A DNA stretch of 64,000 nucleotides from a bacterium (GTDB taxonomy: Bacteria > Actinomycetota > Acidimicrobiia > Spongiisociales > Spongiisociaceae), in contig JAPPGV010000089.1 of the NCBI GenBank assembly GCA_028821235.1, positions 93,839-157,838 of the forward strand, written 5' to 3'. The notes below the pieces were generated by a model, which saw only the letters and a program-made list of their open reading frames with translations, ran no database searches and was not told where the DNA came from. A program made the translations under genes and the position numbers. Below, one piece after another: positions 1-15,021 of the stretch. How positions within the stretch are numbered: the stretch's first letter is position 1; the number at the start of each line of letters is the position of its first letter.

Positions 1-301
1 CTCCAGGAACCATCTGCCGGACCTCGTCGAGCAACTGGCGGTTCTTGGGTAGCTCGAAGTCGACGATGTTGCTCACGATGGCGGCGAAGTCCCGCATGGT
101 GTCCTCATCATCGGCCTTCGCCACACCGAGGGCCATCGCCCTGGCCAACTCCCTCAGGAAGACGATGTTCTGGCCGATGTAGAAGGCGAACTTCCGTTCT
201 GGAAGGGTGCCGGCGGCCAATTCATCCACGAACGGATGGTTGTGCAGCACGTGCCAGATGTCCCGGCAGCTGTCCCTGAGGTTTTCGCAAACACTGCTCA
301 T
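1..301 (-). CDS. TenA/thiaminase-II-like (heme-oxygenase-like fold) family protein; 5' end in window, 3' end beyond window start
   Basis: Minus-strand ATG at 299-301 preceded by GGAGGAGG SD. Translation MSSVCENLRDSCRDIWHVLHNHPFVDELAAGTLPERKFAFYIGQNIVFLREL matches the TenA N-terminal signature (HPFV..L..GTLP.E.F..Y..Q). The start overlaps the stop of the upstream amidohydrolase (ATGA). Open frame runs to position 1. Confidence 0.6.
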   Translation of the reverse strand, partial: MSSVCENLRDSCRDIWHVLHNHPFVDELAAGTLPERKFAFYIGQNIVFLRELARAMALGVAKADDEDTMRDFAAIVSNIVDFELPKNRQLLDEVRQMVPG

Positions 302-1896
302 CGACGGGTACCTCCTCCGATACGCCGGCCGCCATCGAAGCCGACCGGGCCGGTCGTCGTGTTGTACTCGTAGCCGAGGGCCATGGGCTCCTCCGCCCAC
401 GGGCGGTAGAAGTCGAACAGGTACGGCTCGACCTCGAACGCAAGCTCGGCCCACCGAGCCCAGGGCTCCTCCAGATCGAAGAGCCCCCTCGCTATCGCCT
501 CGTTGTACTCGTCCCGGATCTGCTGCTCGTTAAGGGTGGTGATCTCCCCGTTGTCGAGCACCACCTTGCCGGCGATGAGCACCGTCTCGATGTCCGTGCC
601 GTCGGCCCGGTCCAGGATCACGTCGAGGACCGGGCTTATGTAGAAGCGAGCAGGCGTATCGAAGACCCGCTTGCGGTCGAGGATGAGCAAGTCGGCATCT
701 TTTCCCACCGCCAGGCTGCCGATGCGATCCTCGGCGCGGGCGGCCCGGGCGCCGTAGGTGGCCGCGGATCGCAGGAGCGCCTCGGAGTCGAGCCGGCCGT
801 GCTCGGGTTCCGGGCCTAGGGGTAGCCGCTGGAGGTAGGCGCCCAGCCTGACTTCCTGGAGCATGTCGTCACGTTCGGAGAAGGAGATGGCATCGGTGCC
901 GAACGCCAGCCCTCCGCCGGCGTCGAGGATGTCGCGCACCCGGCAAACGCCGGTGCTCAGCCGTAGATTCGAGCCGGGGTTGCTCGCCGCCACGGCCCCG
1001 CTGTCGGCCAGGATCTCGATGTCGCGGTCCGTTGCCCAGACGAAGTGCGACAGCGAGACGTCGGGACCGAGCAGTCCGATGTCAGACAGGCGTTGCATGC
1101 CGGTGACACCGAAGCGCTTGATGTTGTATTGCATCTCGGATCGGGTTTCGAGGCAGTGGGTCATGATCCCGGTGTCGTACTCGGTGGCTATGGCCCGGCA
1201 CCGCCGGTACAGGTCGTTCGAAACGGCCGGGGTCCAGTCCGGAGCAAGCAGGACGCGGAGCCGGTCGTCCCGGCGGTCCCACGTCCTGGCAGTATCCTGA
1301 TACGCGGCTAGGACATCGTCGCTGGGCAGGGCGTAACCCATGGGGGAGTTGCGCACCTCTTCGGCCAGCTGTTCGGGCAGTCGTTTCAGGAAGTCCTCGT
1401 TGGCCTCGTGGACATAGAGGTTCTCATCGCGCAGAGTGATCCCGAGCGCGGTCCGCATTCCCAGGTCCTCGTAGGCCTGCAGAGCATTGTTCATGCCGAA
1501 GTTCTTAGGACCGGGCCGGCCGTAGAAGGCGTCGACCGTGGTTGTGATTCCGCCCCGGACCGCGGTCATGAGGGTGACGAGGATGGCCTGGTACATGATC
1601 TCCTCGTCCATCGGCTTGAAGACCGGATGTACGTAGATGTTGGCCCTCTCGAAGAGCATCTCCCAGAGACCCGGACCCAGCGCCGACTCAGAGTGGTAGT
1701 GGGCGGCAACGAATCCGGGCATGACGAAGTGGTCCTGCGAGCCGAGGATGCGGTCGAAGGGCCCCTTGGTCTCGAGTTCGGCCCTCGGTCCCGACTCCAC
1801 AATCTTCTTACCTTCGACGATCAGGGCGCCATCCGTGATGAACGCTTCGTCGGCAAGCGTGACCACCGGGTTGCCCACGATGAGGTATCGCGACAT
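298..1896 (-). CDS. metal-dependent amidohydrolase family protein (amidohydrolase superfamily, about 532 aa); paralog of the gene at 6543-8099
   Basis: Real start is the internal Met MSRYLIVGNPVV (ATG at 1894-1896, AGGACGG SD upstream), not the track start at 2184. Contains PGFVAAHYHSES (HxH metal-binding motif) and GTD...S near the C-terminus. About 55-60% identical by eye to the 6543-8099 product. Confidence 0.85.
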   Translation of the reverse strand: MSRYLIVGNPVVTLADEAFITDGALIVEGKKIVESGPRAELETKGPFDRILGSQDHFVMPGFVAAHYHSESALGPGLWEMLFERANIYVHPVFKPMDEEIMYQAILVTLMTAVRGGITTTVDAFYGRPGPKNFGMNNALQAYEDLGMRTALGITLRDENLYVHEANEDFLKRLPEQLAEEVRNSPMGYALPSDDVLAAYQDTARTWDRRDDRLRVLLAPDWTPAVSNDLYRRCRAIATEYDTGIMTHCLETRSEMQYNIKRFGVTGMQRLSDIGLLGPDVSLSHFVWATDRDIEILADSGAVAASNPGSNLRLSTGVCRVRDILDAGGGLAFGTDAISFSERDDMLQEVRLGAYLQRLPLGPEPEHGRLDSEALLRSAATYGARAARAEDRIGSLAVGKDADLLILDRKRVFDTPARFYISPVLDVILDRADGTDIETVLIAGKVVLDNGEITTLNEQQIRDEYNEAIARGLFDLEEPWARWAELAFEVEPYLFDFYRPWAEEPMALGYEYNTTTGPVGFDGGRRIGGGTRR

Positions 1897-2012
1897 CTGT
1901 CCCGTCCTTTCGGCTCGTGCCTCCCGGGCCTGCACCGGTGAAGCGCTGACGTCTCTCCCGGACCTGCCGATTTGGTCCGTCATGGCGAGCTTACTTCGGG
2001 CTTGGGAACGGC

Positions 2013-2092
2013 GTCTTGAGGAGGGTGCCGCAAAGACGAGAGGGGGTTGGCCCGCGATCCCGCGACCTGGGTTTCGTTGCCGGTGCCGGGCC
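2013..2092 (+). promoter_or_regulatory. conserved ~80-nt upstream element, copy A (candidate cis-regulatory RNA or operator) in the leader of the amidohydrolase-2 gene
   Basis: cttgaggagggtgccgcaaagacgagagggggttggcccgcgatcccgcgacctgggtttcgttgccggtgccgggcc is closely similar to 10393-10472. Both copies keep a GGCCCG...CGGGCC inverted repeat. It lies 58 nt before the ATG at 2151 and is followed by the CTCGGG...CCCGAG hairpin and the GGAGG SD. Confidence 0.5.
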
Positions 2093-2150
2093 TGGCGGAC
2101 GGTGCTCGGGTTAGGGTATCGACGTTGCCCGAGTCCAGAGGAGGGCGCCA

Positions 2151-3152
2151 ATGCAGATCGATATGCACACCCATGTGCTCGCATTGGCGGCCGATCCCGA
2201 GTTCTCGGTGGAATACGGCCGGGAGGGGTCGCTCTGCATTTACCGCAGTGCGGGGTCCGTGCCGACGCATCGCATGCCCACGGAGGACGAGTGGGAGGAG
2301 AGTGGCTTCTCCCGCAAGGGTTGGCCGATCATCGGTGGCGCCGAATCCATGCGGGACCACCCCGGATTCGACAAGATCGTCCTGCTGTCCGTGTCGCCGC
2401 AGTGGCTCGACGGCCGCTTGATAGGAACGGTCGACCCGACGGGCATCAGCGGCGTCGAGGGTCCGCCTCACCCCGAGAAGTGCAACGACTACATAGCCGG
2501 GCTCGTGCGTCAGGACCCGGCGACCCTGGTCGGCTTCGCTTCGGTGAACCCCGCCTACCAGGGACCGGAGGCGGCGGTGGAGGAACTCACCCGGGCTGTC
2601 CGCGAGCTGGGATTGTCCGGAGTGAAGCTCTACCCGATGTACCAGCACTGGTCGCCCGACGATCGCGAACTGGCCTTCCCCGTCTACCAGTGTGCTCTTG
2701 AGCTCGGGATCCCGGTGATGTTCCACCAGGCCGGATCAACGCGTATCGACGCGTCCCTCGGCCTGGGACGGCCCGCGCTCCTCGACGATGTCGGCAGGGA
2801 GTTCCGTGACCTCGTGGTGATAATAGCCCACATGGGAATCCCGTGGCAGGACGAAGCGCTCTTCCTGCTCACCAAGCACCCCAACTTCTACGGTGAACTC
2901 TCCTACCTGATCGCGGCCCTCAGTCCGAGGGAGTTGTTCACCTTCCTCCACAAGGCGGAGCCCTTCTTCGTTCCCCTGGAGAAGCTGTTCTTCGGTTCGG
3001 ACTATCCCGGGTTCCTCTACGACCCGGTGGTGCTGCGTGACAAGCTCCTCACCATCAACGACCATGCTGAACCGCTGGGACTCGACCCCTTACCCCGGCA
3101 CAAGCTCAAGGGCATCATGGGCGACCACGCGGCCGCCGTCCTCGGCTGGTGA
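2151..3152 (+). CDS. amidohydrolase-2 family (PF04909-like TIM-barrel metal-dependent hydrolase/decarboxylase)
   Basis: ATG start with GGAGG SD 7 nt upstream. N-terminal MQIDMHTHV (D.H.H motif), internal HQAG, IIAHMG and FGSDYP motifs typical of the amidohydrolase-2/ACMSD family. Confidence 0.8.
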   Translation: MQIDMHTHVLALAADPEFSVEYGREGSLCIYRSAGSVPTHRMPTEDEWEESGFSRKGWPIIGGAESMRDHPGFDKIVLLSVSPQWLDGRLIGTVDPTGISGVEGPPHPEKCNDYIAGLVRQDPATLVGFASVNPAYQGPEAAVEELTRAVRELGLSGVKLYPMYQHWSPDDRELAFPVYQCALELGIPVMFHQAGSTRIDASLGLGRPALLDDVGREFRDLVVIIAHMGIPWQDEALFLLTKHPNFYGELSYLIAALSPRELFTFLHKAEPFFVPLEKLFFGSDYPGFLYDPVVLRDKLLTINDHAEPLGLDPLPRHKLKGIMGDHAAAVLGW

Positions 3153-3243
3153 TGGGGGAGTTCGGTAACGGCAGACCGTAGCCTTACCCGGGTCCGGTCG
3201 TCGTCCGGATGAGCACGCGGCATTCCAACCGCAGGAGCCCCGC

Positions 3244-4023
3244 TCATGCGGTCCATCCACCGTCGACGAGAAGGTTCTGCCCGGTCAGGTAGGAACTCAT
3301 ACCGGATACGAGGAACAGCGCTGCTCCGACCATCTCCTCCGGCCGGGCGATGCGGCCAATGGGCGTCCGCTGGAGGATGGCCGACACGTTGTCCTCGTCG
3401 GCGAGATAGTCGCGGGTCATGTCGGTTTCCACCCACGCCGGACTGATGCAGTTGAGCCGCACCTTGGGCGCCCAATGGTCGGCCAGCACGGCACTCATGT
3501 GGATCATGGCCGCCTTGCTGGCGCTGTAGGCGACCTGGGCGCCGTCGCTCACCACCCCTGACAGCGACGCGATGTGGACGATCGAGCCTCCATTGCCGTC
3601 CAGCATGCGGCGACCGACTTCCCTGGTCAGGAAGAAGGCGCCCCGGAGGTTCACGTCGAACAACGCATCCCATTCCGCGGGGCTGATCTCCAGCGCGGAG
3701 GAGCGGTTCGTGGCTCCGGCGGAGTTGACCAGGCTGTCCAGCCCTCCCTTCCACCTCCACGCCGCCGCTACAGCCGCCGCTGTGGAGTCGAGTTCGGCGA
3801 TGTCCGCAACGAGCGGAAGAAACTCGCCTCCTCCGGCGCGTATCTCGTCCCCGAGATCGTCAAGGGCGTCGGCGGAGCGGGCCAGGCCCATCACCGAGGC
3901 GCCGGCCGCGGCCAGACCGATGGCTATGGATCGCCCGATTCCCCTGCTGGCGCCGGCCACTAGCGAGGTGGCGCCACCGAGACCGGGCCGTAGTAGCACC
4001 TCGAAGTGTCCACATTCCACCAC
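3244..4023 (-). CDS. SDR family oxidoreductase (short-chain dehydrogenase/reductase)
   Basis: 259-aa ORF with N-terminal GASRGIGRSIA Rossmann motif, NAG motif (NSAGA) and YSASKAA catalytic Tyr-Lys motif. Confidence 0.85.
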   Translation of the reverse strand: MVECGHFEVLLRPGLGGATSLVAGASRGIGRSIAIGLAAAGASVMGLARSADALDDLGDEIRAGGGEFLPLVADIAELDSTAAAVAAAWRWKGGLDSLVNSAGATNRSSALEISPAEWDALFDVNLRGAFFLTREVGRRMLDGNGGSIVHIASLSGVVSDGAQVAYSASKAAMIHMSAVLADHWAPKVRLNCISPAWVETDMTRDYLADEDNVSAILQRTPIGRIARPEEMVGAALFLVSGMSSYLTGQNLLVDGGWTA

Positions 4024-4083
4024 GAGCGCCCTCCCTGACCTCCGATAAGCTGAGATCGGATCTCAACCAGCGAGGAAACCCTA

Positions 4084-5526
4084 ATGGCCTTGTTCGATGA
4101 GTACGAAGACCACGACGCCCTCGGCTTGGCCGGCCTCATCCGTGACCGCCGGACCACCCCCGATGAGCTGCTCGACGCGGCGCTGGAACGGGTAGCGACC
4201 AGGAATCCCGGTGTCAACGCGGTCATACATCTCATGGAGGACGCGGCCAGGGAAACGATCTCCCGCGGACTTCCTCCGGGGCCGGTGTCGGGGGTTCCCT
4301 TCATGCTCAAGGATCTTCACGGACTCTGCGCCGGCGAACCCACCACCAACGGATCCCGCCTCTACCAGGGGAACGTCGCGGACCATGACAGCACCATCAT
4401 CGCGCGGTACCGAGAGGCCGGTCTCCTCCTGTTCGCCAAGACCAACACGCCTGAGGTCGGGATCAGCGGCACCACCGAGCCGGTTCTTTACGGGCCGACC
4501 CTCAACCCATGGGACAGGTCCCGCAGCGCCGGAGGGTCGAGTGGCGGAGGCGCGGCGGCGGTGGTCACCGGCATGGTGCCCGTCGCGCAGGCAACCGACG
4601 GGGGAGGCTCGATCCGCAGTCCGGCCGCCAACTGCGGGCTGTTCGGTCTGAAACCGACCAGGGCACGGACACCGGCCGGTCCCGACGCGGGGGAGGGATG
4701 GAGCGGTCTTGCCACGTACCATGTCGTCTCCCGCACGGTGCGGGACAGTGCCGTCTTCCTCGACGTCGCCCACGGACCGGAACCCGGCGACCCCTACACC
4801 GCGCCCGTACCCGATCGCGACTTCCTGGCCGAGGTCGGCAGGGACCCGGGCAGGCTCCGCATTGCTCTGTGGACCGAGGGCCTCTGCGGGGAACCCGTCG
4901 ACCCGGAGTGCGTGCTGGCTGCGGAACGGGTCGCCGGCCGGCTAGCGGAACTCGGTCACACGGTCACCCCCGCCGTGCCTCCGGTCTCGGGGGCCGAATC
5001 CCGCCGAGCGATAACCACGATCCTCGTGGGGCATACCGCCAACCACGTCACGCTACGGCTGAATGCGCTGGGCCGTGCCCTCCGGAGCGACGATCTGGAG
5101 AACATAACCCGGCTGGCCGCCGAGGAGGGGAACCGTCTGTCGGCGCGTGACTACGCCAACGCCTTGGTGATGGCTCATCGCACCGGCCGTCAGATGGCCG
5201 GGTTCTTCGACGAGTACGACATCATCCTGAGCCCCACCCTCGCCGATCCACCCCTCCCGCTACGCGGCCTCGATATGATGGGGGACGACCTGGACTACTA
5301 CATGGACAGGCTGTGGGGGCACATGGCCTTCACCCCGCTCTACAACCTGAGCGGTTGCCCCGCCGCGAGCCTTCCGATGCGCATGACACCTGACGGTCTC
5401 CCCGTAGGCGTCCAGATCGGCGCCGCCTTCGGCAACGAGGCCATACTGTTCCGCCTCGCCGCCCAACTCGAAGAGGCCGACCCGTGGTGGGATCGCCGGC
5501 CCCCACCGCTGAACACGGAGGACTGA
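4084..5526 (+). CDS. amidase (amidase-signature family enzyme)
   Basis: 480 aa. Contains the [11 protein letters not shown] and [12 protein letters not shown] amidase-signature motifs. GAGGAA SD upstream of the ATG. Confidence 0.9.
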
Positions 5527-5571
5527 CTCTCCGATCACGGGTAGCCGGTTCTCACCGGCCACCGTTTCTGG

Positions 5572-6540
5572 TCACCGTCCGCTGTTTCGGTGGTGGTCTA
5601 GGCGGTACACGCGGCGGGTGTTCTCTCCGAGTATTTGGTCGATTTCGTGTTGGGGGATGCGGTAGCCCAGTTGTTTGGCCCATTCGGGGAGCATGCGGAA
5701 TTGGTCTACCCATTGTTTGAGGGTGAGGGAGACTTCTATGCCGGCCATGTCGGATCCGAACAGGATCCGGTCTGCTCCGATGCGGTCTCTCATCCATACG
5801 ATCTTGCGGGTTAGTTCGTCGGGGGAGATCCAGTGTTGCCATAGGCTCATGTCGAGGTGGATGTTGGTCTTGTAGATGGCGACGGAGATGGCTTCGTGTG
5901 CCCAGGTTTCGTAGCGGGCGGAGTGGCCGAGGATGAAGCGTAGGTCGGGGAAGTCGGCGGCGGCGGAGTCGACGTAGATGGGGTGTCCGAACTTGGATTT
6001 GTGCCGGCCTGCGGAGTGTCCTTGGTGGAGGAGTACGGGTAGGTCTCGTTCTAGGAGGAACCGGTAGAGGGGGTAGACGAGGTCTTCGTCGTCGGGGTAG
6101 AAGCCGTTGGTGGGGTATAGCTTGAGGCCTATGGCGCCCCATTCGTCTACTGCTGTGGTGAGGATGTCGAGGGCGTCGGGGCGGCGGGGGTCTACTCCGC
6201 AGAAGGTGTAGAGGCGTCCGGGGTGTCTTTTGGTGGCTTCGGCGCAGAGCCGGTTCTTTTCCGCGATGGGGATGACGCCTTCTTCGCCCAGGCCGACTCC
6301 GTGGTCCATGGGCATCATCACCGACGCGTCTACCCCGGCCTCGTCCATACGAGCCACCGCCTTATCGCCGTTGCCGTCGGCAGCCACACTCCAAGCCTCC
6401 GCGAAGTACTCGGGGTCGGACTTGGGCGGGTCGTACCAGCGCACCTGCCTCGCCCAGGATTCGGCCATGCCCGAGGACACGTTCATCGGGTTCCAGTCGT
6501 GTTCCATGATGTGCATGTGGCAATCCACCACCAAGGGCAT
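5572..6540 (-). CDS. amidohydrolase-2 family (PF04909-like metal-dependent hydrolase), second copy
   Basis: Real start is the internal Met MPLVVDCHMHIMEH (ATG at 6538-6540), 2 nt after the TGA of the upstream gene. The track's 565-aa ORF carries a spurious Arg/Pro-rich N-terminal extension. Motifs HQGHS and FGSDMAG. Confidence 0.8.
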   Translation of the reverse strand: MPLVVDCHMHIMEHDWNPMNVSSGMAESWARQVRWYDPPKSDPEYFAEAWSVAADGNGDKAVARMDEAGVDASVMMPMDHGVGLGEEGVIPIAEKNRLCAEATKRHPGRLYTFCGVDPRRPDALDILTTAVDEWGAIGLKLYPTNGFYPDDEDLVYPLYRFLLERDLPVLLHQGHSAGRHKSKFGHPIYVDSAAADFPDLRFILGHSARYETWAHEAISVAIYKTNIHLDMSLWQHWISPDELTRKIVWMRDRIGADRILFGSDMAGIEVSLTLKQWVDQFRMLPEWAKQLGYRIPQHEIDQILGENTRRVYRLDHHRNSGR

Positions 6541-6542
6541 GG

Positions 6543-8099
6543 TCACTCCCCTCTTGAACCGTTCCCCGTAAGGGGCGGATGCTTGGCGTTGTAAACGGCC
6601 GCCGGCTCCAACGGTGTCCGGGCCCACGGGCGGTAGAAGTCGAGGACGTAGGGGTCTACCTCCCATCCCAGGCGCACCGACTCGGGGTCGGGGTCGCTTC
6701 CCATGATGCGCGCAGCCGCTTCGGTGACGTAGTCGTGCACACGGCTGTGCGGAATGCGGGTGAACTCGCCGTCGTCGAACACGATCTCTCCGGCGACCAT
6801 GACCGAGGCCACGTCGGCGGCGGAGGCTCGGTCGAGGATCACGTCCAGGGGCGGGGTGGATGCGTAGCGTTCCTCCGGCCAGAACAAGCGGTCCCGGCTC
6901 AATACGACCAGGTCGGCTTCCTTGCCGACGCCGAGCGAGCCGAGTTCGGACTCGAAGCGGATCGCCCGGGCGCCGTTCTCCGCAGCGGCTCGCAGCACGG
7001 CCTCCGAATCGAGGCGCCCGACCTCGAGCAATCCCGGCGTTCTCTGCAGATAGGCGGCGAGGCGGAGTTCTTGGAGGAAGTCGCCGGAGTCGGAGAAGGA
7101 GATGTTGTCGGTGCCGAAGCACACCCGCCCGCCGCGGTCCATGATGTCCCTCACCCGGGCTATCCCGGTGCTGAGCCGGAGGTTGGAGCCGGGATTGTTG
7201 ACGGCCACCGCTCCCGTGTCGGCGAGTATCGAGATGTCCTCGTCGGTCGCCCAGACGAAATGGGAACACGACACGTCGGGCCCCAGCACCCCGAGATCCG
7301 CCAGGCGGCGCATAGCCGTCTTGCCGTCGCTCTCCAGCGCGTACATCATCTCGGAGCGGGTCTCGAGCACGTGCGTCATGATCCCCGTTCCGAACTCATC
7401 GGCGAGGCGCCGGTTCCGCACGTAGAGTTCGTCCGAGCACGCCGGCGTCCAGTCGGGGGCGAGCAGGACCCGGATCCGGCCCTCCCGGTGATCCCAGCGG
7501 GAGACCAGGTCCCGGTAGGTGGCGAACACCTCGCCGATCGGCCATGCGTAACCCATCGCCGAGGCGCGCACCCGAGCAGCCAGATCCTCGGGAAGCATGG
7601 CGAGGAACGACTCGTCGTCGGCATGGACCAGGGTGTTGCGGTCCCTGGTCACCACGCCGAGGGCCACCCGGACTCCGAGGTCCCGGTAGGCCGCCAGGAT
7701 CGCGTCGTACCCGAAGTTGGGCAGACCCGACCGGCCGTAGTTGAGGTCGACGAACCCGGTCTGGCCACCTCGCACATCGTTCATGACGTTGGCCAGTACC
7801 GCGTGGTATAGGTCTTCCTCGGTAACGGGGGTCCACATGCCATGCAAGTGGACGTTGGCCCGCTCGAAGATGTACTGGGCCATGCCCCTGCTCAGGGCTG
7901 AACCCGAGTGGTAGTGACCGTTGATGAATCCCGGAAGGACGGTATGGCGGCGCGATCCGACCCGCCGGTCGAACGGACCGAGGCCCTCCAGCTCGCGCCT
8001 CTTTCCGATCCGGGAGACGGTCCGATCCTCGACGACGAGCGCGCCGTCCCGGATATACCCCGGGGAAGCATCGCCGAGGACGACGAGGGGATCTCCCAT
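6543..8099 (-). CDS. metal-dependent amidohydrolase family protein (about 518 aa); paralog of 298-1896
   Basis: Start taken at MGDPLVVLGDASPGYIRDGALVVED (ATG 8097-8099), which aligns with MSRYLIVGNPVVTLADEAFITDGALIVEG of the paralog. GFINGHYHSGSAL HxH motif. The upstream 322 codons of the track ORF are low-complexity. Confidence 0.85.
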   Translation of the reverse strand: MGDPLVVLGDASPGYIRDGALVVEDRTVSRIGKRRELEGLGPFDRRVGSRRHTVLPGFINGHYHSGSALSRGMAQYIFERANVHLHGMWTPVTEEDLYHAVLANVMNDVRGGQTGFVDLNYGRSGLPNFGYDAILAAYRDLGVRVALGVVTRDRNTLVHADDESFLAMLPEDLAARVRASAMGYAWPIGEVFATYRDLVSRWDHREGRIRVLLAPDWTPACSDELYVRNRRLADEFGTGIMTHVLETRSEMMYALESDGKTAMRRLADLGVLGPDVSCSHFVWATDEDISILADTGAVAVNNPGSNLRLSTGIARVRDIMDRGGRVCFGTDNISFSDSGDFLQELRLAAYLQRTPGLLEVGRLDSEAVLRAAAENGARAIRFESELGSLGVGKEADLVVLSRDRLFWPEERYASTPPLDVILDRASAADVASVMVAGEIVFDDGEFTRIPHSRVHDYVTEAAARIMGSDPDPESVRLGWEVDPYVLDFYRPWARTPLEPAAVYNAKHPPLTGNGSRGE

Positions 8100-8171
8100 T
8101 ACCAGCGTCCGGCTCACCGTGGTCCTCTCACCCTGGTCCTCCTTGGGTGACCTGACCATAATGCCACCGGA

Positions 8172-9320
8172 GTGAGGTTGCTGGAACACGAGTCCAAGGC
8201 CCGCCTGGCCAGGGCCGGGGTCAGGGTTCCGCGGGGTGCCGTCGCCACCACACCGGAACAGGCTGGGTCTGCCGCGCGGGCTCTGGACGGCGAGGTCTTC
8301 GTCAAGGCGTTGGTCCCGGCGAACCGGCGGTCCAAGAACAATGGCGTGATAGGCCCCATCGGACGGGACGCCGCGGCGCGAGCGGCGCATGAGTTGCTCG
8401 GTTCCCGGATCCTGGGCCATCGGTGCCGGTCGGTCTACGTGGAGGAGGCTGTCGCCGTGGCCGGAGAGCTCTATACCGCCTTCTCGTGGGGTCCTCGCGG
8501 TCCCCGGGTCACCGCATCCGGCGCAGGAGGTGTTGACATCGAGAGCTCGGGCGATGCGATGGTTCACCTTGACCTCGAGGGGTTGGCAGAACTGCCCCAA
8601 GACGGGGCGGAGCGTCTCTGGCGGCGGGCGCTGGGCGACGCCCGGGTCCCACCTGCGCTGGTCGAGCTGACCGTGTCGGCAGCCGGCGTCTTCTTCGACG
8701 ATGCGCTGCTGGTGGAACTGAACCCGCTGGCCAGGTCGGCCGACGGGTTGTTCATCGCAGTCGGAGCGCTGATCGAGATGGACGGCAACGCCCTCTTCAG
8801 GCATCCGGAACTCCGATGGCGTCCCGACGGGTTCAGCGAGCGGGAGGCCGTCGTGGCAGAGGCCGATCGCCGGCTTCCGGGCGCCTCCGTACGTTACGTG
8901 GAACTCGACGGTGATACGGGGCTGCTGGTGGGCGGGGGCGGCGCCGGGCTCTACCAGCACGATCTGCTGGTCCAAGCGGGTATGCGACCGGCCAACCACA
9001 GCGACCTGGGCGCCGGGGTATCGGCCGAGAAGCTGGACGTGCTGATCGAGGCCGTGCTCGGCCACCCCAACCTCTCGCGTCTGCTGGTCAGCTTCAACAT
9101 CCTCCAGCTGGCCCCTTGCGACCTCATCATGGAGAGACTCCTGATGGGGCTGGACCGGCTCGGAGACCGAGACGGTCCGATCCCGGTGGTGGTCCGGCTA
9201 GAGGGGCTCAACGCCGATCGGGCCCGGAGGCTGGCGGCAGGACGGGCCGGTTTGCGGTACCTTCCGTCCGGAGCGAGTCTGGGAGAGGCCGTGGACACCT
9301 TGGTCAGGATCAGCCGGTGA
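8172..9320 (+). CDS. succinyl-CoA synthetase beta-subunit-like protein (SucC-like ATP-grasp subunit of an ADP-forming acid--CoA ligase)
   Basis: GTG start; N-terminal MRLLEHESKARLARAGVRVPRG aligns with the SucC start MNLHEYQAK.LL..YG.PVP. Length of 382 aa is typical for SucC. Divergently oriented to the amidohydrolase gene. Substrate is unknown. Confidence 0.8.
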   Translation: MRLLEHESKARLARAGVRVPRGAVATTPEQAGSAARALDGEVFVKALVPANRRSKNNGVIGPIGRDAAARAAHELLGSRILGHRCRSVYVEEAVAVAGELYTAFSWGPRGPRVTASGAGGVDIESSGDAMVHLDLEGLAELPQDGAERLWRRALGDARVPPALVELTVSAAGVFFDDALLVELNPLARSADGLFIAVGALIEMDGNALFRHPELRWRPDGFSEREAVVAEADRRLPGASVRYVELDGDTGLLVGGGGAGLYQHDLLVQAGMRPANHSDLGAGVSAEKLDVLIEAVLGHPNLSRLLVSFNILQLAPCDLIMERLLMGLDRLGDRDGPIPVVVRLEGLNADRARRLAAGRAGLRYLPSGASLGEAVDTLVRISR

Positions 9321-9535
9321 TCGTCCGCGCCGACATGGCGTCGATCGTCTGGCGGATCACCGTCGCCGAAGGCGAACGGGTGCGAGCCGGGCAGGAGCTC
9401 CTCATCCTCGAGTCGATGAAGATGGAGATGCCCGTCATTGCTCCGGTGGCCGGGACAGTGGTAAACATCCCGGTGGCGGAGGGAGACGTGATCGAGGCCG
9501 GTGACGCGCTGGTGCGGATCGAACGCAGCCGGTGA
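9317..9535 (+). CDS. stand-alone biotin carboxyl carrier protein (biotinyl domain, about 72 aa)
   Basis: GTG start overlapping the sucC-like stop (GTGA). Contains LILESMKMEMPVIAPVAGTV with the MKM biotinylation motif of biotin_lipoyl domains. The alternative ATG at 9335 is in frame. 4-nt overlap with the downstream gene. Confidence 0.7.
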   Translation: MIVRADMASIVWRITVAEGERVRAGQELLILESMKMEMPVIAPVAGTVVNIPVAEGDVIEAGDALVRIERSR

Positions 9536-10419
9536 GCATCCTGGTCGACGAGCGGACCCGGATCCTGGTCCAGGGCATAACCGGCTCCGTGGGCCGGGTG
9601 GATACCCGGCTTTGCCTCGACTACGGATCCCGGATCGTGGCCGGCGTAACGCCCGGACGGGGTGGTGAATCGGTCTCGGGGGTGCCGGTCTTCGATACGG
9701 TGGCCGAAGCAGTCGAGCGGACCGGGGCCACCGCGGCCGTTCAATACGTGCCGGCCCGCCACGCAGCGGACGCGGTGGTCGAGGCGGCCGCCTCCGGCCT
9801 GTCGCCGATCGTGGCCATTGCCGAGAACCTGCCCCGGCAGGATGCCTGGCGGGCCGCCGTCGCCGCTCGGAACGCCGGTTCGGTCCTGATCGGGTTCAAT
9901 ACCAACGGCATCATCTCACCGGGAAGGACGAAGCTGGGGGGCATCGGCGGGCCGCGGCCCGACGACCTGTTCCGCCCCGGAACCGTGGGTGTCTGCTCCC
10001 GGTCGGGGGGAATGTCCGCCGAGATCGCGCGTTCGTTAGCCAGGGCCGGCAGCGGGGTCTCTACCTGCGTCTCGATGGGAGGGGAGTCGATCACCGGAAG
10101 AACCATGGCCGAGTACGCCCGCTGGTTCGAGGCGGACGAGGCCACCCGCAGCATCGTGGTCTTCGGCGAGCCGGGATCGGAGCATGAGGCCGAAATGGCC
10201 GCCGCCATGGAGCGCGGCGAGGTGACCAAACCGGTCGTGGCGATGATCGTGGGCCAGTTCCAGGACGCCTACCCGGCCGGATCCTCCTTCGGCCACCTAT
10301 CGGCGATGGTACGGCTCGATACCGACCGTGCGGTGGTTAAACGTGACATGCTGGCGGCCGCCGGAGCGCTGATCGCGGAGCGTGTCGAGGACATTCCCGA
10401 TCTCTTGGGAGGGTGCTGA
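9532..10419 (+). CDS. succinyl-CoA synthetase alpha-subunit-like protein (SucD-like CoA-binding/phosphohistidine subunit)
   Basis: GTG start overlapping the previous stop (GTGA). MSILVDERTRILVQGITGSVG...GVTPGRGG...PVF matches the SucD N-terminus MSILV.K.TKVIVQG.TG..G...GVTPGKGG almost motif for motif. CSRSG and MGG motifs are present. Confidence 0.85.
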   Translation: MSILVDERTRILVQGITGSVGRVDTRLCLDYGSRIVAGVTPGRGGESVSGVPVFDTVAEAVERTGATAAVQYVPARHAADAVVEAAASGLSPIVAIAENLPRQDAWRAAVAARNAGSVLIGFNTNGIISPGRTKLGGIGGPRPDDLFRPGTVGVCSRSGGMSAEIARSLARAGSGVSTCVSMGGESITGRTMAEYARWFEADEATRSIVVFGEPGSEHEAEMAAAMERGEVTKPVVAMIVGQFQDAYPAGSSFGHLSAMVRLDTDRAVVKRDMLAAAGALIAERVEDIPDLLGGC

Positions 10420-10472
10420 AAAAGACGGGGTTTGGTTGGCCCGCGATGCCCCTACCTGGGGTTTTGTTTCCG
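10393..10472 (+). promoter_or_regulatory. conserved ~80-nt upstream element, copy B, in the leader of the carboxyltransferase gene
   Basis: cttgggagggtgctgaaaaagacggggtttggttggcccgcgatgcccctacctggggttttgtttccggctctcgggcc. The same blocks as copy A (aaagacg, ggttggcccgcgat, acctggg, ttt.gtt.ccgg, cgggcc) are conserved. It lies 63 nt before the GTG at 10536 and is followed by the ACCCT-cgt-AGGGT hairpin and the GGAGG SD. Its 5' end overlaps the last codons of the sucD-like gene. Confidence 0.5.
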
Positions 10473-10535
10473 GCTCTCGGGCCAACGGGACATTCTTCAG
10501 TACCCTCGTAGGGTCATGAGCAGGATGGAGGCGAA

Positions 10536-12092
10536 GTGATCTGGGACCCCGAACTCGAGGAGATGGAGCGCCGGAAGGTGTATGCGCTCTCGATGGGCGG
10601 GGAGGAGGCCGTGGCCCGCCAGCACGACGCCGGTCGGCTCACCGCCAGGGAGAGGCTCAGCCTACTGCTCGACGAGGGTACCTGGCAGGAGATCGGGACC
10701 TTCACCGGTGCGGCCACCTACGACGCGGAGGGCCGGCTCGTGACCGTGAAACCGGCCAACACCATCATCGGCACCGGCCGGGTCCGCGGTCGCCGGGTGG
10801 CCGTCGAAGCCGACGACTACACGATCAGGGGAGGTTCGACGGAAGCGCAGATCTCCGAGAAGTGGGAGTTCATCAACCGGTACGCATTGGAGATGCGGAT
10901 GCCGATGATCCGTCTCGTGGAGAATGTCGGCGGAAGTGTCCGCCTGCTCGAGAAGATGGGGCGGACCAAGATCCCCGGGTACCGCATGTGGCCCCTCGCC
11001 GGGATGCTCGGCTACGTACCTGTGGTGGCCCTGGTGCTAGGTCCGTCAGCAGGTCTCGGTCCTATGAAGGCCGCCAGCAGCCACTTCTCGGTGATGGTCC
11101 GCGGCACCAGCCAGGTGTTCGCCGCCGGCCCTCCGGTGGCGCGGGTCGCCCTGGGCCGGGACATCGATAAGGAGGAACTGGGAGGCGCCCACATCCACAC
11201 CGAGGAGAGCGGAGTCATCGATAACGCGACCGACTCGGAGGAGGAGGCGATCTGCCAGGCAAAGCGGTTCCTGTCGTACCTGCCGCAGAGTGTCTTCGAG
11301 TTGCCCCCCCGCCAACCCGGCGACGACTCTCCCGACCGCGCCGAGGACGAGTTGGCCTCGATCATCCCGCGGAATCAGCGCCGGGTCTACGACTCGCGGA
11401 GGCTCCTCTCGCTGGTCTTCGACCGCGGCACGCTCTTCGAGATCGCTCCCGCCTACGGACCTTCATCCATCACGATGCTGGCCCGCCTCAACGGTTATCC
11501 GGTCGGCGTGATCGCCAACGATCCCTACCGGTTCGGGGGCGGTCTGACCCGCGCCGCTGCAGAGAAGGTCGAGACTTTCGTGGATCTCTGTGACACCTTC
11601 CACGTTCCGATCGTGAACTTCGTGGACCAGCCCGGCACCGTGATCGGGCTGGAAGCCGAGCGCGAAGGGGCAGTGCGAGGGACCATCCGCCTCATCTCCG
11701 CCATCGAGCAGTCGCGGGTTCCGTGGTGCGGCATGATCGTGCGAAGGCTCTTCGGTCTGGCGGGCACCAGCTACGGTCGGCTGCAGGGCTTGAACCTTCA
11801 CTACGCCTGGCCGTCTGCCCGGTGGGGTTCCATCCCGATCCAGGGCGGGGTACGAGCCGCTTTCCGCCGGGAACTCGACGCCCTGCCACCAGACGAAGCG
11901 GCGGAAAGGCTTGCCCGGCTGGAGGAGCAATACGACGGGCTGTCGTCGCCGTTCCGGACGGCAGAGGCTTTTGGAGTGCCGGAGATCATCGACCCCCGCC
12001 GGACCAGGCCCATCCTGTGCCAATGGATCGAGGACGCCTATGCCGTGCTACCCGAGCAACTGGGGCCGACAGCCCGTACCATGCGCAGGTAG
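10536..12092 (+). CDS. acyl-CoA carboxyltransferase (PccB/AccD/12S transcarboxylase-like CT subunit)
   Basis: GTG start with GGAGG SD 5 nt upstream. N-terminal GGEEAVARQHDAGRLTARERLSLLLDEG is the classic propionyl-CoA carboxylase beta / methylmalonyl-CoA carboxyltransferase signature. 518 aa covers both CT halves. Confidence 0.9.
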   Translation: MIWDPELEEMERRKVYALSMGGEEAVARQHDAGRLTARERLSLLLDEGTWQEIGTFTGAATYDAEGRLVTVKPANTIIGTGRVRGRRVAVEADDYTIRGGSTEAQISEKWEFINRYALEMRMPMIRLVENVGGSVRLLEKMGRTKIPGYRMWPLAGMLGYVPVVALVLGPSAGLGPMKAASSHFSVMVRGTSQVFAAGPPVARVALGRDIDKEELGGAHIHTEESGVIDNATDSEEEAICQAKRFLSYLPQSVFELPPRQPGDDSPDRAEDELASIIPRNQRRVYDSRRLLSLVFDRGTLFEIAPAYGPSSITMLARLNGYPVGVIANDPYRFGGGLTRAAAEKVETFVDLCDTFHVPIVNFVDQPGTVIGLEAEREGAVRGTIRLISAIEQSRVPWCGMIVRRLFGLAGTSYGRLQGLNLHYAWPSARWGSIPIQGGVRAAFRRELDALPPDEAAERLARLEEQYDGLSSPFRTAEAFGVPEIIDPRRTRPILCQWIEDAYAVLPEQLGPTARTMRR

Positions 12093-12179: not shown

Positions 12180-13529
12180 GTGGCTGATCGGATCATCATC
12201 GAGAACGCTGCCATCGTGACGATGAACGAGGAGGACGATGTCATCTTCGACGGATCGATGGTCATCGAGGGCAACCGGTTAGTCGCCGTCGGAGGATCCG
12301 AGGCGGCGTCCGGATACGACCGCGCCACCGCGAAGGTCATCGACGCCGGCGGCAAAGCGGCGCTGCCGGGATTCGTCGACCTCCACTACCACACCGCCAT
12401 CGGAAAGGGCTACTGCGACCATCTGGATCTGTGGGAGATCCTGCAGGGGTTCTGGTATCCCATGATCCGGGCGATCAATCCCGAAGAGGCCTACTGGGCG
12501 GCCATGGCCAGTTACAGCGAGTCTCTGAAGGCCGGTGTCACCACCGCCAACGACATGTTCCGCCAACTCCCGGCCCTGGCGCGGGCGGCAGTCGACAGCG
12601 GGATCCGGGTGGTTCTCTCCAACGACATAGCCGACCCGGAGCACGACCTCGACGTGATCGAGGACAACGAATCGGCCTACCACGAGTGCCACGGGATGGG
12701 CGACGGGCGGGTGGAGGTCTACGTGGGTATCGAGTGGCTACCCCTCGCGTCCGAGCAACTGCTGGTGGACTGCCGGGCGCTGGCCGACCAGCTTGGGACC
12801 GGTATCCACATCCACCTGAACGAGTCCCTCGGCGAGGTCGAGATCTCCAAGCAGGCGTTCGGCGGCCGCCGGCCCACCGAGGTGGCATACGACACCGGGA
12901 TCCTGGGACCGGATTGCGTGGCCGCCCACTGCGTGCACCTATCGGACCGGGAGATCGGGCTCATGAGCGAGACAGGAACCCATATCTCCCACAACCCCAC
13001 CTCCAATGCCAAGCTCGGCAACGGTATCGCCCGGCTGCCCGAGATGCTGGAGGCAGGCCTCAACGTCGGCCTGGGCCACGACTCGGCGGAGGGAACCAAC
13101 AGTTGCGACCTGTTCCAGGTGATGAAGTGGGCGTCGTTGGTTCATCGGGCCGAGCGGAAGGACGCGTCGATCCTGCAGGCGCCCGCCATCCTGGGCATGG
13201 CGACCAGGAACGGCGCGCGTGCCCTCGGCCACGAGACGGGCGAGTTGAGCGTAGGAAAGGTGGCGGACGTGATCCTGGTCAACCTGCAGAACCACCACTT
13301 CACCCCTTGGGTGCCGGGCAACAAGATCCACCTCATGTCACACCTGGTCTACAGCGCGGAGAGCGCCGCGGTCGACACGACCATCGTGGACGGCACGGTG
13401 GTGATGGAAGGGCGCGAGTTCCTGGTCTTCGACGAGGAGGAGGTGCTGGCGAAGGCGACCGAGAGCTTCTTCACCTGCATCGACCGGATGGAGGTCCCCG
13501 AGGAGTACGCCGGGCTTCTCGATCGCTAG
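12180..13529 (+). CDS. amidohydrolase, TRZ/ATZ family (guanine/MTA-deaminase, chlorohydrolase-like)
   Basis: GTG start with GAGGAG SD. MADRIIIENAAIVTMNEE, LPGFVDLHYHTAIG (HxH), HIHLNES, GHD and VADVILV motifs characteristic of TRZ/ATZ-family amidohydrolases (MtaD/SsnA/AtzA-like). Confidence 0.85.
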   Translation: MADRIIIENAAIVTMNEEDDVIFDGSMVIEGNRLVAVGGSEAASGYDRATAKVIDAGGKAALPGFVDLHYHTAIGKGYCDHLDLWEILQGFWYPMIRAINPEEAYWAAMASYSESLKAGVTTANDMFRQLPALARAAVDSGIRVVLSNDIADPEHDLDVIEDNESAYHECHGMGDGRVEVYVGIEWLPLASEQLLVDCRALADQLGTGIHIHLNESLGEVEISKQAFGGRRPTEVAYDTGILGPDCVAAHCVHLSDREIGLMSETGTHISHNPTSNAKLGNGIARLPEMLEAGLNVGLGHDSAEGTNSCDLFQVMKWASLVHRAERKDASILQAPAILGMATRNGARALGHETGELSVGKVADVILVNLQNHHFTPWVPGNKIHLMSHLVYSAESAAVDTTIVDGTVVMEGREFLVFDEEEVLAKATESFFTCIDRMEVPEEYAGLLDR

Positions 13530-13603: not shown

Positions 13604-14038
13604 CTAGCCATCTGGCGTTTCCACTAGTTCCACGAGCAGGCCGTCGAACTCGCGGGGGTGGACGAATGCGATCATCGTGCCCATCCCGCCGGGACGGGGC
13701 TGCTCGTCGATGAGTTGAACGCCCACGCTGGCGAGCCGCCGGAGGCATTCCCCGATGTCCTCCACCTCGAAGGCGATGTGGTGGAGAGCGGAGCCGCGCT
13801 TGTCTACGAACTTGCCTACGACCCCGGGGCCGGTCGCTTCGAGGGTCTGGACGAAGCCGTCCCCGACCGGGAGCATCCTCTCGGTGAATCCCGGTCCGTC
13901 CTCCTCGTGGCAGACCGGAACGCCCAGCAGCTCAGCGAACCGTTCGTGTGGCGCAGACGTCGGGGTGTGCGCGAAGGCGACATGGTGGATCCTGAGCAGC
14001 GGCGGCCACCACGGGGAAGGGGTCGGTTCCTGGACCAT
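13604..14038 (-). CDS. VOC/glyoxalase-family protein, methylmalonyl-CoA epimerase-like
   Basis: Start at internal Met MVQEPTPSPWWPPLLRIHHVAFAH (ATG 14036-14038), overlapping the stop of the upstream LLM gene (TAATG). HHVAF...LHHIAFEVEDI...VQLID motifs resemble methylmalonyl-CoA epimerase. The rest of the 447-aa track ORF is low-complexity. Confidence 0.65.
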   Translation of the reverse strand: MVQEPTPSPWWPPLLRIHHVAFAHTPTSAPHERFAELLGVPVCHEEDGPGFTERMLPVGDGFVQTLEATGPGVVGKFVDKRGSALHHIAFEVEDIGECLRRLASVGVQLIDEQPRPGGMGTMIAFVHPREFDGLLVELVETPDG

Positions 14039-15021
14039 TACAGGCGGGAGAAGACCCTGGAGAACGCCTCGACGGTCTCCCGGCGCCGGGAACCGAGCGG
14101 GAACACCGTCACCGAATCCACTCCCAGGTCGGCCAGGGTCCGGAGGTGGGCCATCGCTTGGTCGCTGTCGCCGGCGAAGGCCATCTTCTCGACGAATTCC
14201 CGGGGCATGATCGAAGCCGCGGCGAGTGCCTCCTGGAACTCGCCTCCTGCATACCGAGCCTTGACGTCGGCCGAGATGGCGGGGTCCAGACCGGCCAACT
14301 CGCAGTAGACCGGCGCGGTCTGGGGGAACCAGGCGGCGATCGAGCGGGCCGCCTGCAGGGCGCCGGCGGGATCGTCGTCGTCTATCGCTCCGTAGCCGAA
14401 GACGGACACGTGGGGGCGGGACCGGCCTGCTCGCTCGGCGCCCCGGTCGATGTGCTCCAACCCGTAGGCGACCCCGTCCCGGAACAGGCCGCCCAGGAAG
14501 ATGACCCCGTCGGCGATCTCGCCGGCCAACTCCAGGGTCTTGGGTCCGCTCGCCGAGATGAACACCGGGATCCGGTATGAGGCTTCGAACCGAAGGTGGG
14601 CGTCGTCCATAGTGAACCCAGCCCCTTCGTAGGTGACGTGTTCGCCGGCAAGGAGCCGGCGGATAACCTCGATCGACTGGCGCATCTCCAGGAGCCGGGC
14701 GGGCCGCAGGCCGAGGGAGCGGAGCGGGCGATCGCCCGCTCCGATACCGAGGACCGTCCTTCCCGGCGCCAACTCCTCGAGGCTGGCTGCATTGACGGCC
14801 ACGATGCCGGGATGGCGGGTCTGCGGGTTGGTCACCGCGGTTCCCAGCACCATGCGGGTGGTCAACCTCGCCGCCAGCGTCAGGTGCATGTAGGGGTTTC
14901 GGGTGTGGAGGGAGGAGTCGGTGAGCCAGAGGTAGTCGTACCCGCACCGGTCGACTACCCGGACCATGTCCTCGAATACGTGGGGAGGGTAACGACCCTG
15001 TAGGGCTACACCGGTCTGCAT
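14038..15021 (-). CDS. LLM-class flavin/F420-dependent oxidoreductase (luciferase-like monooxygenase family)
   Basis: Start at internal Met MQTGVALQGRYPPHVFEDMVRVVDRCGYDYLWLTDS (ATG 15019-15021, AGGAAGG SD upstream), 4 nt after the stop of the M20 gene. TIM-barrel LLM motifs are present. The track N-terminal 135 codons are spurious. Confidence 0.75.
   Translation of the reverse strand: MQTGVALQGRYPPHVFEDMVRVVDRCGYDYLWLTDSSLHTRNPYMHLTLAARLTTRMVLGTAVTNPQTRHPGIVAVNAASLEELAPGRTVLGIGAGDRPLRSLGLRPARLLEMRQSIEVIRRLLAGEHVTYEGAGFTMDDAHLRFEASYRIPVFISASGPKTLELAGEIADGVIFLGGLFRDGVAYGLEHIDRGAERAGRSRPHVSVFGYGAIDDDDPAGALQAARSIAAWFPQTAPVYCELAGLDPAISADVKARYAGGEFQEALAAASIMPREFVEKMAFAGDSDQAMAHLRTLADLGVDSVTVFPLGSRRRETVEAFSRVFSRL

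Follow-up and report, generated by a model that had tools for sequence, protein, structure and literature searches.

Several described systems share enzyme families with the locus analyzed here. In fungal thymidine salvage, 5-hydroxymethyluracil is converted via 5-formyluracil to 5-carboxyuracil, on which isoorotate decarboxylase, a PF04909 protein, then acts; members of the PF04909 family are known to catalyze decarboxylation and hydration rather than to hydrolyze amides. In TenA, the thiaminase II of the Bacillus ThiXYZ-YlmB-TenA salvage system, Asp44 hydrogen-bonds the amino groups of hydroxymethylpyrimidine phosphate (HMP-P), and the D44A variant loses most activity (PMC5623701). The fates of the pyrimidine carboxylic acid (PCA) and other oxidized thiamine fragments were stated to be unknown in a 2024 paper (PMC11223231). 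Here we analyzed a 64,000 nt stretch (the window) of contig JAPPGV010000089.1, from a member of the Acidimicrobiia, in which amidohydrolases of the PF01979 type (A1, A2 and A3) and PF04909 proteins (B1 and B2) are encoded together with a TenA-family protein. A sequence-only reading of this DNA had seen an inverted segmental duplication of an amidohydrolase plus amidohydrolase-2 gene pair. The duplication as such is ordinary and was partly mistaken; the locus is a good lead. Its cluster is widespread and unannotated, and the TenA encoded there represents a coherent active-site variant. L-numbers below denote the loci or contigs that were compared.

A1 and A2 are clear paralogues, as had been proposed: they share 54% amino acid identity over 520 aa (537 bits), and the HYHS, LLAPDWTPA, GIMTHxLETRSEM and NPGSNLRLSTG blocks are all present. 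A PF04909 gene stands beside each, B1 at A1 and B2 at A2, and the sequence TGA-cc-ATG at the junction of A2 with B2 was confirmed to the letter. The A2 gene had been delimited at 6543-8099 (518 aa). An exact look-up of the 518-aa form had no match, because public gene calls place its start so as to give 538 or 524 aa; it most likely begins with GTG at 8117, since residue 1 of A1 aligns there, most homologues are 524 aa long and the PGAP call in NCBI record MDE0376374 is also of 524 aa.

The geometry does not support an inversion. A1 and A2 lie on the same, minus strand, and their DNA repeats are direct, with ~70% identity at a spacing of ~6220 nt. Between B1 and B2, identity is as low as 29% (234 aa aligned), compared with 54% between A1 and A2. 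Copying a gene pair, in either orientation, would not account for the strand pattern A(-)B(+)...B(-)A(-). A search of 5.8 billion proteins with A2 gave 634 matches at E<=1e-20 among 8000 candidates scored, and every one of the 118 full-length matches listed exceeds A1 in similarity to A2. A1 falls into a clade of its own, in which relatives are 63-68% identical to it, and a neighbour-joining tree places A1 and A2 in well-separated clades. B1-type orthologues (69-89% identity) adjoin A genes in soil loci and Frankia and occur in Herbiconiux, and B2-type orthologues (58-91%) are found in unrelated contigs. The paralogy thus predates the spread of these families, and A1 and A2 are, on these sequence comparisons, very probably ancient paralogues that did not arise by local duplication. 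A recent local inverted duplication of one gene pair would account for the mirrored plus-strand order (A1, B1 ... B2, A2) and for the paralogy of A1 and A2, but inverted copies, equal divergence of the A and B genes, and copies that are each other's nearest relatives were all lacking, both B subfamilies are kept at 58-91% identity in unrelated soil contigs, and the spacing of the two blocks varies from 6 to 22 kb among sister genomes. We regard this scenario as very improbable.

An older event, in which an ancestral A-B module was duplicated before the cluster spread in Actinomycetota, yielding A1/B1 and A2/B2 types that were later shuffled, is possible although we doubt it. Profile comparison shows B1 and B2 to be distant homologues (hhalign probability 99.4%), both have 3IRS as best PDB relative, A-B adjacency is usual, and two A-B modules also occur in soil contigs L036, L037, L047 and L071. 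However, the type of B gene does not follow the A clade: B1- and B2-type partners are scattered over the A tree, the A protein of L024 is sister to A2 yet its gene adjoins a B1-type gene, and the B1-type gene of Herbiconiux pairs with an A3-type gene, with no A gene. The best explanation, and a probable one, is that A1 and A2 are anciently diverged members of one distinct, uncharacterized cog0402 (TRZ/ATZ-type) clade and that their layout reflects the shuffling of modules within a widespread catabolic cluster. A genuinely recent duplication, apparently of B2, is seen close by. In the close relatives L006 and L014, an additional copy of B2 (B2') stands between the short-chain dehydrogenase/reductase (SDR) gene and B1, and a B2-like gene has this position in L017 and L020. 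The B2' of L014 (3717-4661) is 94% identical to the B2 of the same locus and 100% identical over residues 60-315, which indicates a recent duplication or gene conversion. In the window, the first ~75 nt of B2' are kept (~3170-3248), followed by a ~950 bp deletion.

Positions 1 to ~25000 of the window contain the whole gene set of the cluster in rearranged order, including an unbroken 11-gene minus-strand run from the Zn-dependent alcohol dehydrogenase (ADH) gene at 25026 down to the epimerase-like gene at 13604 (Table 1). An identical A2 protein and the same gene order are found in ENA scaffold ROBB21-1_SAMN13943213 scaffold_125. In metagenome-assembled genomes of sponge-associated Acidimicrobiia, the genes form two blocks located 6-22 kb apart: A3, carboxyltransferase, SucD and SucC face A2-B2, followed by the amidase and usually the SDR where the locus is long enough, and B1 faces A1-TenA. 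A scan of metagenome contigs gave 79 loci, mostly from JGI soil or sediment assemblies according to contig names. Many soil contigs share the co-linear order [M20]-[NicX/B12]-mutase-CoA-transferase-M20-LLM-epimerase-GntR-TenA-ADH-ALDH-A3-A-B1 (LLM, luciferase-like oxidoreductase; ALDH, aldehyde dehydrogenase), and the encoded proteins are 50-89% identical to their counterparts in the window. A B-type gene is adjacent to 37 of the 46 metagenome A genes with room on both sides, an A3-type gene is located directly upstream of 39 of 57, and TenA is present in 30 of the 39 loci of at least 9 kb. The amidase, SucC and SucD, which occur in none of these 39 long loci, were thus added in the sponge lineage; the SDR (33-34%) and the carboxyltransferase have weak 32-35% matches in two of the 39. 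The amidase, SDR and TenA genes pointed out earlier are all present, but the amidase and SDR are not part of the core.

The same gene families occur together outside the sponge clade in L024, L028, L029 and L031. Frankia sp. EI5c (LRTK01000022.1) carries mutase-CoAT-M20-LLM-GntR-A3-NicX-A-B1 (CoAT, CoA-transferase) and Herbiconiux sp. P15 (JBHFHH010000009.1) has a compact variant, LLM-TenA-B1-GMC oxidase-A3-NMT1 binding protein-TenA-ABC-LLM. Just past the left edge of the window, genes for Hydantoinase_A (HyuA, 677 aa) and Hydantoinase_B (HyuB) directly follow TenA (L023, 18538-21617), and the string A-TenA-HyuA-HyuB recurs in soil contigs L056, L063, L064 and L071. The rhodanese gene, a further addition of the sponge lineage, is absent from its place between ALDH and M20b in the canonical soil clusters, with weak 31% matches in L036 and L055. 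NCBI annotates these proteins just as "amidohydrolase family protein" or "thiaminase II", and we found no paper describing the cluster in the literature on thiamine and hydroxymethylpyrimidine (HMP) catabolism. The genes are thus strongly clustered rather than housekeeping deaminases scattered among relatives, and it is highly likely that the locus represents a conserved catabolic island for an N-heterocycle. A separate A-family clade occurs in L011 and L012 (8143-13131), where the protein is 57-58% identical to A2 and no PF04909 partner is present; this A gene is flanked by genes for a peptide-type ABC transporter (SBP_bac_5) and for a luciferase-like monooxygenase, and a RidA-like gene follows in L011, a partly Rut-like arrangement.

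The subfamily assignments agree with a role outside housekeeping metabolism. A1, A2 and A3, the last being the third amidohydrolase noted earlier at 12180, score 156, 146 and 206 bits against PF01979 (gathering cut-off 25). None of them reaches an NCBIfam equivalog cut-off (best scores 206 vs 522 for A1, 204 vs 522 for A2 and 337 vs 609 for A3), nor does the amidase, and none of the NCBIfam models is hit by B1 or B2. Identities as methylthioadenosine/S-adenosylhomocysteine (MTA/SAH) deaminase, 5'-deoxyadenosine deaminase, N-ethylammeline chlorohydrolase, 8-oxoguanine deaminase, guanine deaminase and SsnA were all rejected, the scores being under the equivalog cut-offs. All 28 diverse A-family members compared have H68, H70, H249, E252, H286 and D337 (numbered as in A2) in the form of HxH, HxxE, H and D, a pattern predicted to form the mononuclear metal site and catalytic Glu of cog0402 deaminases. 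The nearest solved structures are MTA/SAH deaminase 4F0R (the best, E=3.5e-43), 8-oxoguanine deaminase and atrazine chlorohydrolase. The A family carries an extra C-terminus of ~70 residues with a conserved VEPYVxDFYRxW motif.

The PF04909 genes had been included among enzymes that break C-N bonds, a role that their relatives do not favor. B1 and B2 (104 and 116 bits against PF04909, cut-off 26.4) have as nearest PDB relatives 3IRS, of unknown function, followed by ACMSD, LigJ, LigW and gamma-resorcylate decarboxylase. By these matches they resemble ACMSD/LigW/LigJ-type decarboxylases or hydratases, not C-N hydrolases. H6, H8, H192, H227 and D284 are invariant in the B1 type and H8, H10, H172/H175, H206 and D264 in the B2 type; by analogy with ACMSD these are the presumed metal ligands.

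The carbon-skeleton module is centered on a B12-dependent mutase that is closer to HcmA (513 bits) than to methylmalonyl-CoA mutase (MCM; 439 bits), has HcmA 4R3U as its best PDB match and scores 568 bits against the methylmalonyl-CoA mutase equivalog NF006944 (cut-off 876). It retains the TMY, R and GYH motifs, whose Tyr, Arg and His we take to correspond to the carboxylate-binding Tyr89 and Arg207 and the catalytic His244 of MCM. HcmA is 2-hydroxyisobutyryl-CoA mutase, and the window mutase (17319-20271 region) is nearest to it yet has the MCM-like TMY/Arg motifs. In L024 (3692-5050), the B12-binding domain is fused to a NicX-like protein in a 452-aa polypeptide. The mutase, epimerase and CoA-transferase together imply a branched carbon skeleton, which s-triazines lack.

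This bears on the substrate, for which the sequence-only reading had listed s-triazine, pyrimidine, hydantoin or lactam-like compounds. A dedicated N-heterocycle pathway is in line with the conserved clustering and the absence of equivalog assignments, but the s-triazine option is not: no AtzD/TrzD-type, biuret or allophanate hydrolase was found among the called genes. With 198 bits for AtzE (cut-off 461) and 118 for allophanate hydrolase (cut-off 487), the amidase was rejected as either enzyme. A cluster for s-triazine (atz/trz-like), hydantoin or pyridine (nicotinate, vitamin B6) breakdown would explain why N-ethylammeline chlorohydrolase and TRZ/ATZ hydrolase are among the top NCBIfam names, why HyuA and HyuB follow TenA, and why a NicX-like gene is present. 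The TRZ/ATZ matches are nevertheless far under their cut-offs (e.g. 189 bits vs 609), as is HyuA, whose best match is the caprolactamase alpha subunit (418 bits vs 1000), and the recurrent TenA and ThiY-like genes point to pyrimidines. We give such a cluster a slight probability at most.

The TenA-like gene noted earlier belongs to TenA, and its start (301-299) overlaps the A1 stop in an ATGA. The full-length protein scores 166 bits against TIGR04306 (thiaminase II, salvage_TenA equivalog; cut-off 130). In the numbering of BsTenA, whose sequence was verified against PDB 1TO9 and 1YAF, it keeps Cys135, Tyr112, Glu205 and Phe208, while Asp44 is replaced by Asn and Tyr163 by Phe. Asp44, the residue that goes with amino-group binding and activity on aminomethylpyrimidine (AmMP), is thus Asn in the window TenA. 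Asn44 and Phe163 are found in 82 of 116 TenA homologues and in nearly all TenAs within these clusters. Canonical Asp44/Tyr163 TenAs mostly adjoin NMT1-type transporter genes, and in several variants canonical TenAs and an NMT1-type binding protein co-occur with the cluster. A ThiY-like binding protein (NMT1/THI5 fold) is encoded in L024, L028, L036, L037, L050, L054, L102, L104 and L112; the best PDB match of the one in L028, the sole one tested, is ThiY, the binding protein for formylaminomethylpyrimidine (FAMP; 3IX1, E=1e-40). L028 also carries a gene of the Thiamine_BP family (PF01910).

These thiamine-related genes raise the question of salvage, in which the pyrimidine would be recycled to HMP for biosynthesis and not degraded. 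The TenA score above the salvage_TenA cut-off, the ThiY-like proteins of some variants and the M20 proteins, which belong to the same family as the YlmB deformylase, would all suit such a role. However, no TPP riboswitch (RF00059, thiamine pyrophosphate) was detected at gathering thresholds in the window, L024, L028, L036 or L078, and GntR/FCD regulators are present instead, which argues for catabolism rather than salvage. Neither thiD nor thiE was seen among the loci read, and the co-linear deaminase-like, ADH/ALDH, CoA-transferase, B12 mutase and epimerase genes would destroy the pyrimidine. Salvage is therefore improbable.

The recurring combination of TenA, ADH/ALDH or GMC oxidase, PF04909 protein, deaminase-type enzymes, deacylases and mutase module suggests the breakdown of a pyrimidine bearing a one-carbon substituent at C5. 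The cluster probably catabolizes a 5-(substituted-methyl)pyrimidine. That this is specifically a thiamine-derived compound is plausible, though somewhat short of probable; it is favored by the TenA family itself, the canonical TenAs in variants, the Thiamine_BP gene of L028 and the ThiY-like binding proteins. In the proposed pathway, the substrate would most likely come from the thiamine pyrimidine family (HMP, AmMP, FAMP, PCA). TenA would exchange the substituent on the 5-methylene for OH, and ADH and ALDH (GMC oxidase in some variants) would oxidize the hydroxymethyl group. The PF04909 enzyme could then decarboxylate or hydrate the product, and A3 and A would remove the ring amino or amidine nitrogen. 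Ring opening may be carried out by the LLM, NicX-like and HyuAB enzymes and deacylation by M20 and the amidase, after which CoA-transferase, epimerase and mutase would linearize the branched C4 skeleton to a succinyl-CoA-type product. Such a route fits TenA chemistry, which acts at the C5 methylene, and the branched C4-C5(-C7)-C6 skeleton is what a methylmalonyl-type mutase linearizes.

Since Asn44 suggests a ring that differs at C4, a 4-oxo or uracil/cytosine-type substrate is a serious rival. The island might degrade a modified nucleobase, for instance thymine, or a cytosine or uracil that bears a methyl, hydroxymethyl or aminomethyl group at C5. The exchange of Asp44 for Asn agrees with a uracil-type ring that is 4-oxo; ADH, ALDH and PF04909 protein mirror the conversion of 5-hydroxymethyluracil via 5-carboxyuracil to uracil in fungal thymidine salvage; epimerase and mutase fit the methylmalonate chemistry of thymine-type compounds; and the Frankia core lacks TenA. 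The ThiY-like proteins (3IX1) and canonical thiaminase II genes that accompany the cluster, together with the Thiamine_BP-family gene of L028, speak against nucleobases, and no nucleoside or nucleobase genes (phosphorylases, permeases) were seen beside the cluster. We consider this alternative unlikely overall, while taking it seriously.

Several points weigh against a thiamine pyrimidine pathway. Thiamine derivatives are trace compounds and scarce nutrients, awkward substrates for a catabolic island of ~20 genes. With Asn44, the cluster TenA probably does not take canonical AmMP, and the actual substrate could instead be a 5-substituted pyrimidine of the 4-oxo or uracil/cytosine type. The window contains neither a ThiY-like transporter nor a canonical TenA, and the core cluster of Frankia sp. 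EI5c has no TenA, ADH or ALDH. No match between B1 or B2 and isoorotate decarboxylase was detectable at E<0.01, and the NicX-like protein and HyuAB would suit a pyridine or lactam substrate, too. The deep branches of the A tree come from neighbour joining only, without support values. Finally, the substrate, the order of steps and every reaction are what we infer from sequence, next to the paralogy, subfamilies, synteny and active-site signatures that were observed.

What has been found is a cluster of 12-20 genes, conserved from soil Actinomycetota to sponge symbionts, in which a distinct TenA subclass is associated with amidohydrolases of deaminase-like and decarboxylase-like character and with a B12 mutase. 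Tentatively, it may represent the first described set of genes with which bacteria degrade the thiamine pyrimidine (HMP, AmMP, FAMP, PCA) completely, comprising an Asn44/Phe163 TenA subclass that would act on a deaminated or otherwise altered pyrimidine, paired deaminase- and decarboxylase-type modules and a two-subunit B12 mutase. If the substrate is this pyrimidine or a related 5-substituted one, the cluster would provide genes for a pathway of which the products, but not the enzymes, have been known since the 1960s (PMC11223231). It would also assign functions to several large unannotated families, namely the 520-aa A family, the B1 and B2 types and the Asn44 TenAs, and would matter for the turnover of vitamin B1 in soils, oceans and sponge holobionts. 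The cultured carriers Frankia sp. EI5c and Herbiconiux sp. P15 make the cluster directly testable.

Table 1. Features of the cluster in the window (positions are those of the window).
Feature	Position	Strand	Remark
TenA (thiaminase II family)	<1-301	-	first 100 codons in window, rest past left edge; full length 222 aa; signature QN...C135...F163...E205
A1, 532-aa cog0402/TRZ-ATZ-type amidohydrolase, deaminase-like active site	298-1896	-	PF01979 1.7e-45
Conserved intergenic motif, copy 1	2032-2074	+	~77 nt upstream of B1 start
B1, PF04909 (Amidohydro_2), B1-type subfamily	2151-3152	+	divergent from A1
B2' remnant, ~75 nt 5' end of deleted third PF04909 gene	3170-3248	-	alignment with close relative L014, where B2' is intact
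SDR oxidoreductase, sponge-lineage addition	3244-4023	-	
Amidase-signature enzyme, sponge-lineage addition	4084-5526	+	PF01425 2.6e-92
B2, PF04909, B2-type subfamily	5572-6540	-	translationally coupled to A2
A2, 524-aa A1 paralogue	6543-8117	-	start corrected to GTG 8117
Succinyl-CoA ligase beta subunit-like (ATP-grasp_2)	8172-9320	+	Pfam/NCBIfam
Biotin carboxyl carrier-like, 72 aa	9317-9535	+	NF004547 80 bits vs cut-off 75; Pfam match
Succinyl-CoA ligase alpha subunit-like	9532-10419	+	
Conserved intergenic motif, copy 2	10421-10463	+	~73 nt upstream of carboxyltransferase start
Acyl-CoA carboxyltransferase	10536-12092	+	PF01039 2.6e-87
A3, 449-aa TRZ/ATZ-type amidohydrolase	12180-13529	+	upstream partner of A genes in other loci
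Methylmalonyl-CoA epimerase-like (Glyoxalase_4)	13604-14038	-	TIGR03081 91.7 bits, under cut-off 115
Luciferase-like oxidoreductase (LLM), F420/Mer-like class	14038-15021	-	
M20 deacylase M20a	15026-16117	-	
Family III CoA-transferase	16114-17307	-	
B12-dependent acyl-CoA mutase, large subunit	17319-18911	-	PF01642 1e-198; best PDB match HcmA 4R3U
B12-binding small subunit, DxHxxG motif	18908-19312	-	separate 134-aa gene
NicX-like protein	19309-20271	-	68% identity to NicX-domain protein of L024
M20 deacylase M20b	20268-21458	-	
Rhodanese, 3-mercaptopyruvate sulfurtransferase-like	21492-22436	-	between ALDH and M20b
Aldehyde dehydrogenase (ALDH), cluster orthologue	22456-23973	-	52-65% identity in metagenome clusters; 61-65% in canonical soil form
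Zn alcohol dehydrogenase (ADH), cluster orthologue	23992-25026	-	61-67% identity in canonical soil clusters

The GC content of the window is uniformly high (64-71%). A conserved element of ~43-55 nt (AAAGACGnGnnnnGGTTGGCCCGCGATnCCnCnACCTGGG...) is located on the plus strand ~75 nt upstream of both the B1 and the carboxyltransferase starts. Its 27-nt core matches twice in the window, with 0 matches expected, and the element is kept in close relatives L009, L013 and L014. It may serve as an operator or promoter common to the B1 and carboxyltransferase units and so co-regulate them. Inspection by eye did not favor an RNA hairpin; the short CGCG/CGCG stem of copy 1 is not kept in copy 2. The plus-strand operon at 8172-12092, encoding ligase-like beta subunit, 72-aa biotin carrier, ligase-like alpha subunit and carboxyltransferase, is unusual and limited to the sponge Acidimicrobiia lineage. 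No biotin carboxylase gene was found near it, and it may encode a CoA-ligase-coupled transcarboxylase or decarboxylase.

Further along the window, an S-adenosylmethionine riboswitch (RF00162, 69.3 bits vs gathering 44.4) at 26360-26442 on the minus strand precedes a 204-aa gene (25557-26171, -) with an OsmC-like domain, for which the best NCBIfam match, "OsmC-related (seleno)protein", is under the cut-off. The neighboring ABC importer (26565-29148, -) has a ThiB/ThiP-like architecture, in which the permease is a fusion of two domains (535 aa) and the binding protein is of the SBP_bac_6 type. It was rejected as ThiBPQ (27 bits vs 679 for ThiP, 27 vs 93 for the thiB type); models of the 2-aminoethylphosphonate (AEP) type score slightly better than the thiamine models, still under their cut-offs. 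A 787-aa protein encoded at 30618-32981 (+) has both a D-Ala-D-Ala carboxypeptidase (S13) domain and one of S-layer homology. A LuxR-type response regulator gene (39906-40544) stands beside that of a PspC-domain histidine kinase (40541-42010), and a second PspC-domain protein is encoded divergently at 41841-43079.

Among known systems, MTA/SAH and 5'-deoxyadenosine deaminases, the automatic JGI annotation of the A family, share the HxH/HxxE/H/D site and the closest structure, 4F0R. In contrast to these enzymes, the A family has the C-terminal extension with the VEPYVxDFYRxW motif, falls under the cut-off of the 5'-deoxyadenosine deaminase equivalog (206 bits vs 522) and is encoded in a catabolic island instead of among genes for the salvage of methionine or adenosine. 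The Atz/Trz enzymes (AtzA/B/C, TrzN, AtzE) resemble the cluster in combining the cog0402 branch with an amidase, and atrazine chlorohydrolase and triazine hydrolase are among the PDB matches. The cluster differs in that no equivalog is reached, cyanuric acid, allophanate and biuret hydrolases are missing, the amidase is absent from its widespread form, and the mutase, epimerase and CoA-transferase module would have no role in triazine breakdown.

Reductive pyrimidine and thymine catabolism via methylmalonate semialdehyde has in common with the cluster an epimerase-like gene, a B12 acyl-CoA mutase and a CoA-transferase, and the M20 amidase could act in the manner of beta-ureidopropionase. However, no PydA, PydB or PydC homologues were identified in the cluster, reduction would fall to the F420-type luciferase-like enzyme, and the mutase is nearer to HcmA than to MCM and has a separate B12 subunit. 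As in fungal thymidine salvage, a 5-hydroxymethyl group would be oxidized and a PF04909 protein would decarboxylate the product, and the genes for ADH, ALDH (or GMC oxidase) and the putative decarboxylase B are co-linear. Unlike the fungal route, oxidation in the cluster would use dehydrogenases instead of the 2-oxoglutarate-dependent thymine 7-hydroxylase, and B1 and B2 are nearest to 3IRS, ACMSD, LigJ and LigW, not to isoorotate decarboxylase.

Like the Bacillus ThiXYZ-YlmB-TenA system, the cluster has a TenA-family protein with Cys135, Glu205 and Tyr112, M20 deacylases of the YlmB family and, in several variants, ThiY-like binding proteins. It is unlike that system in the Asn44/Phe163 signature of its TenAs, in lacking a TPP riboswitch and, in the window, ThiY. 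The TenA gene is embedded among deaminase-like, ADH/ALDH, B12 mutase and CoA-transferase genes, which suggests that the logic of the cluster is degradative rather than one of recycling.

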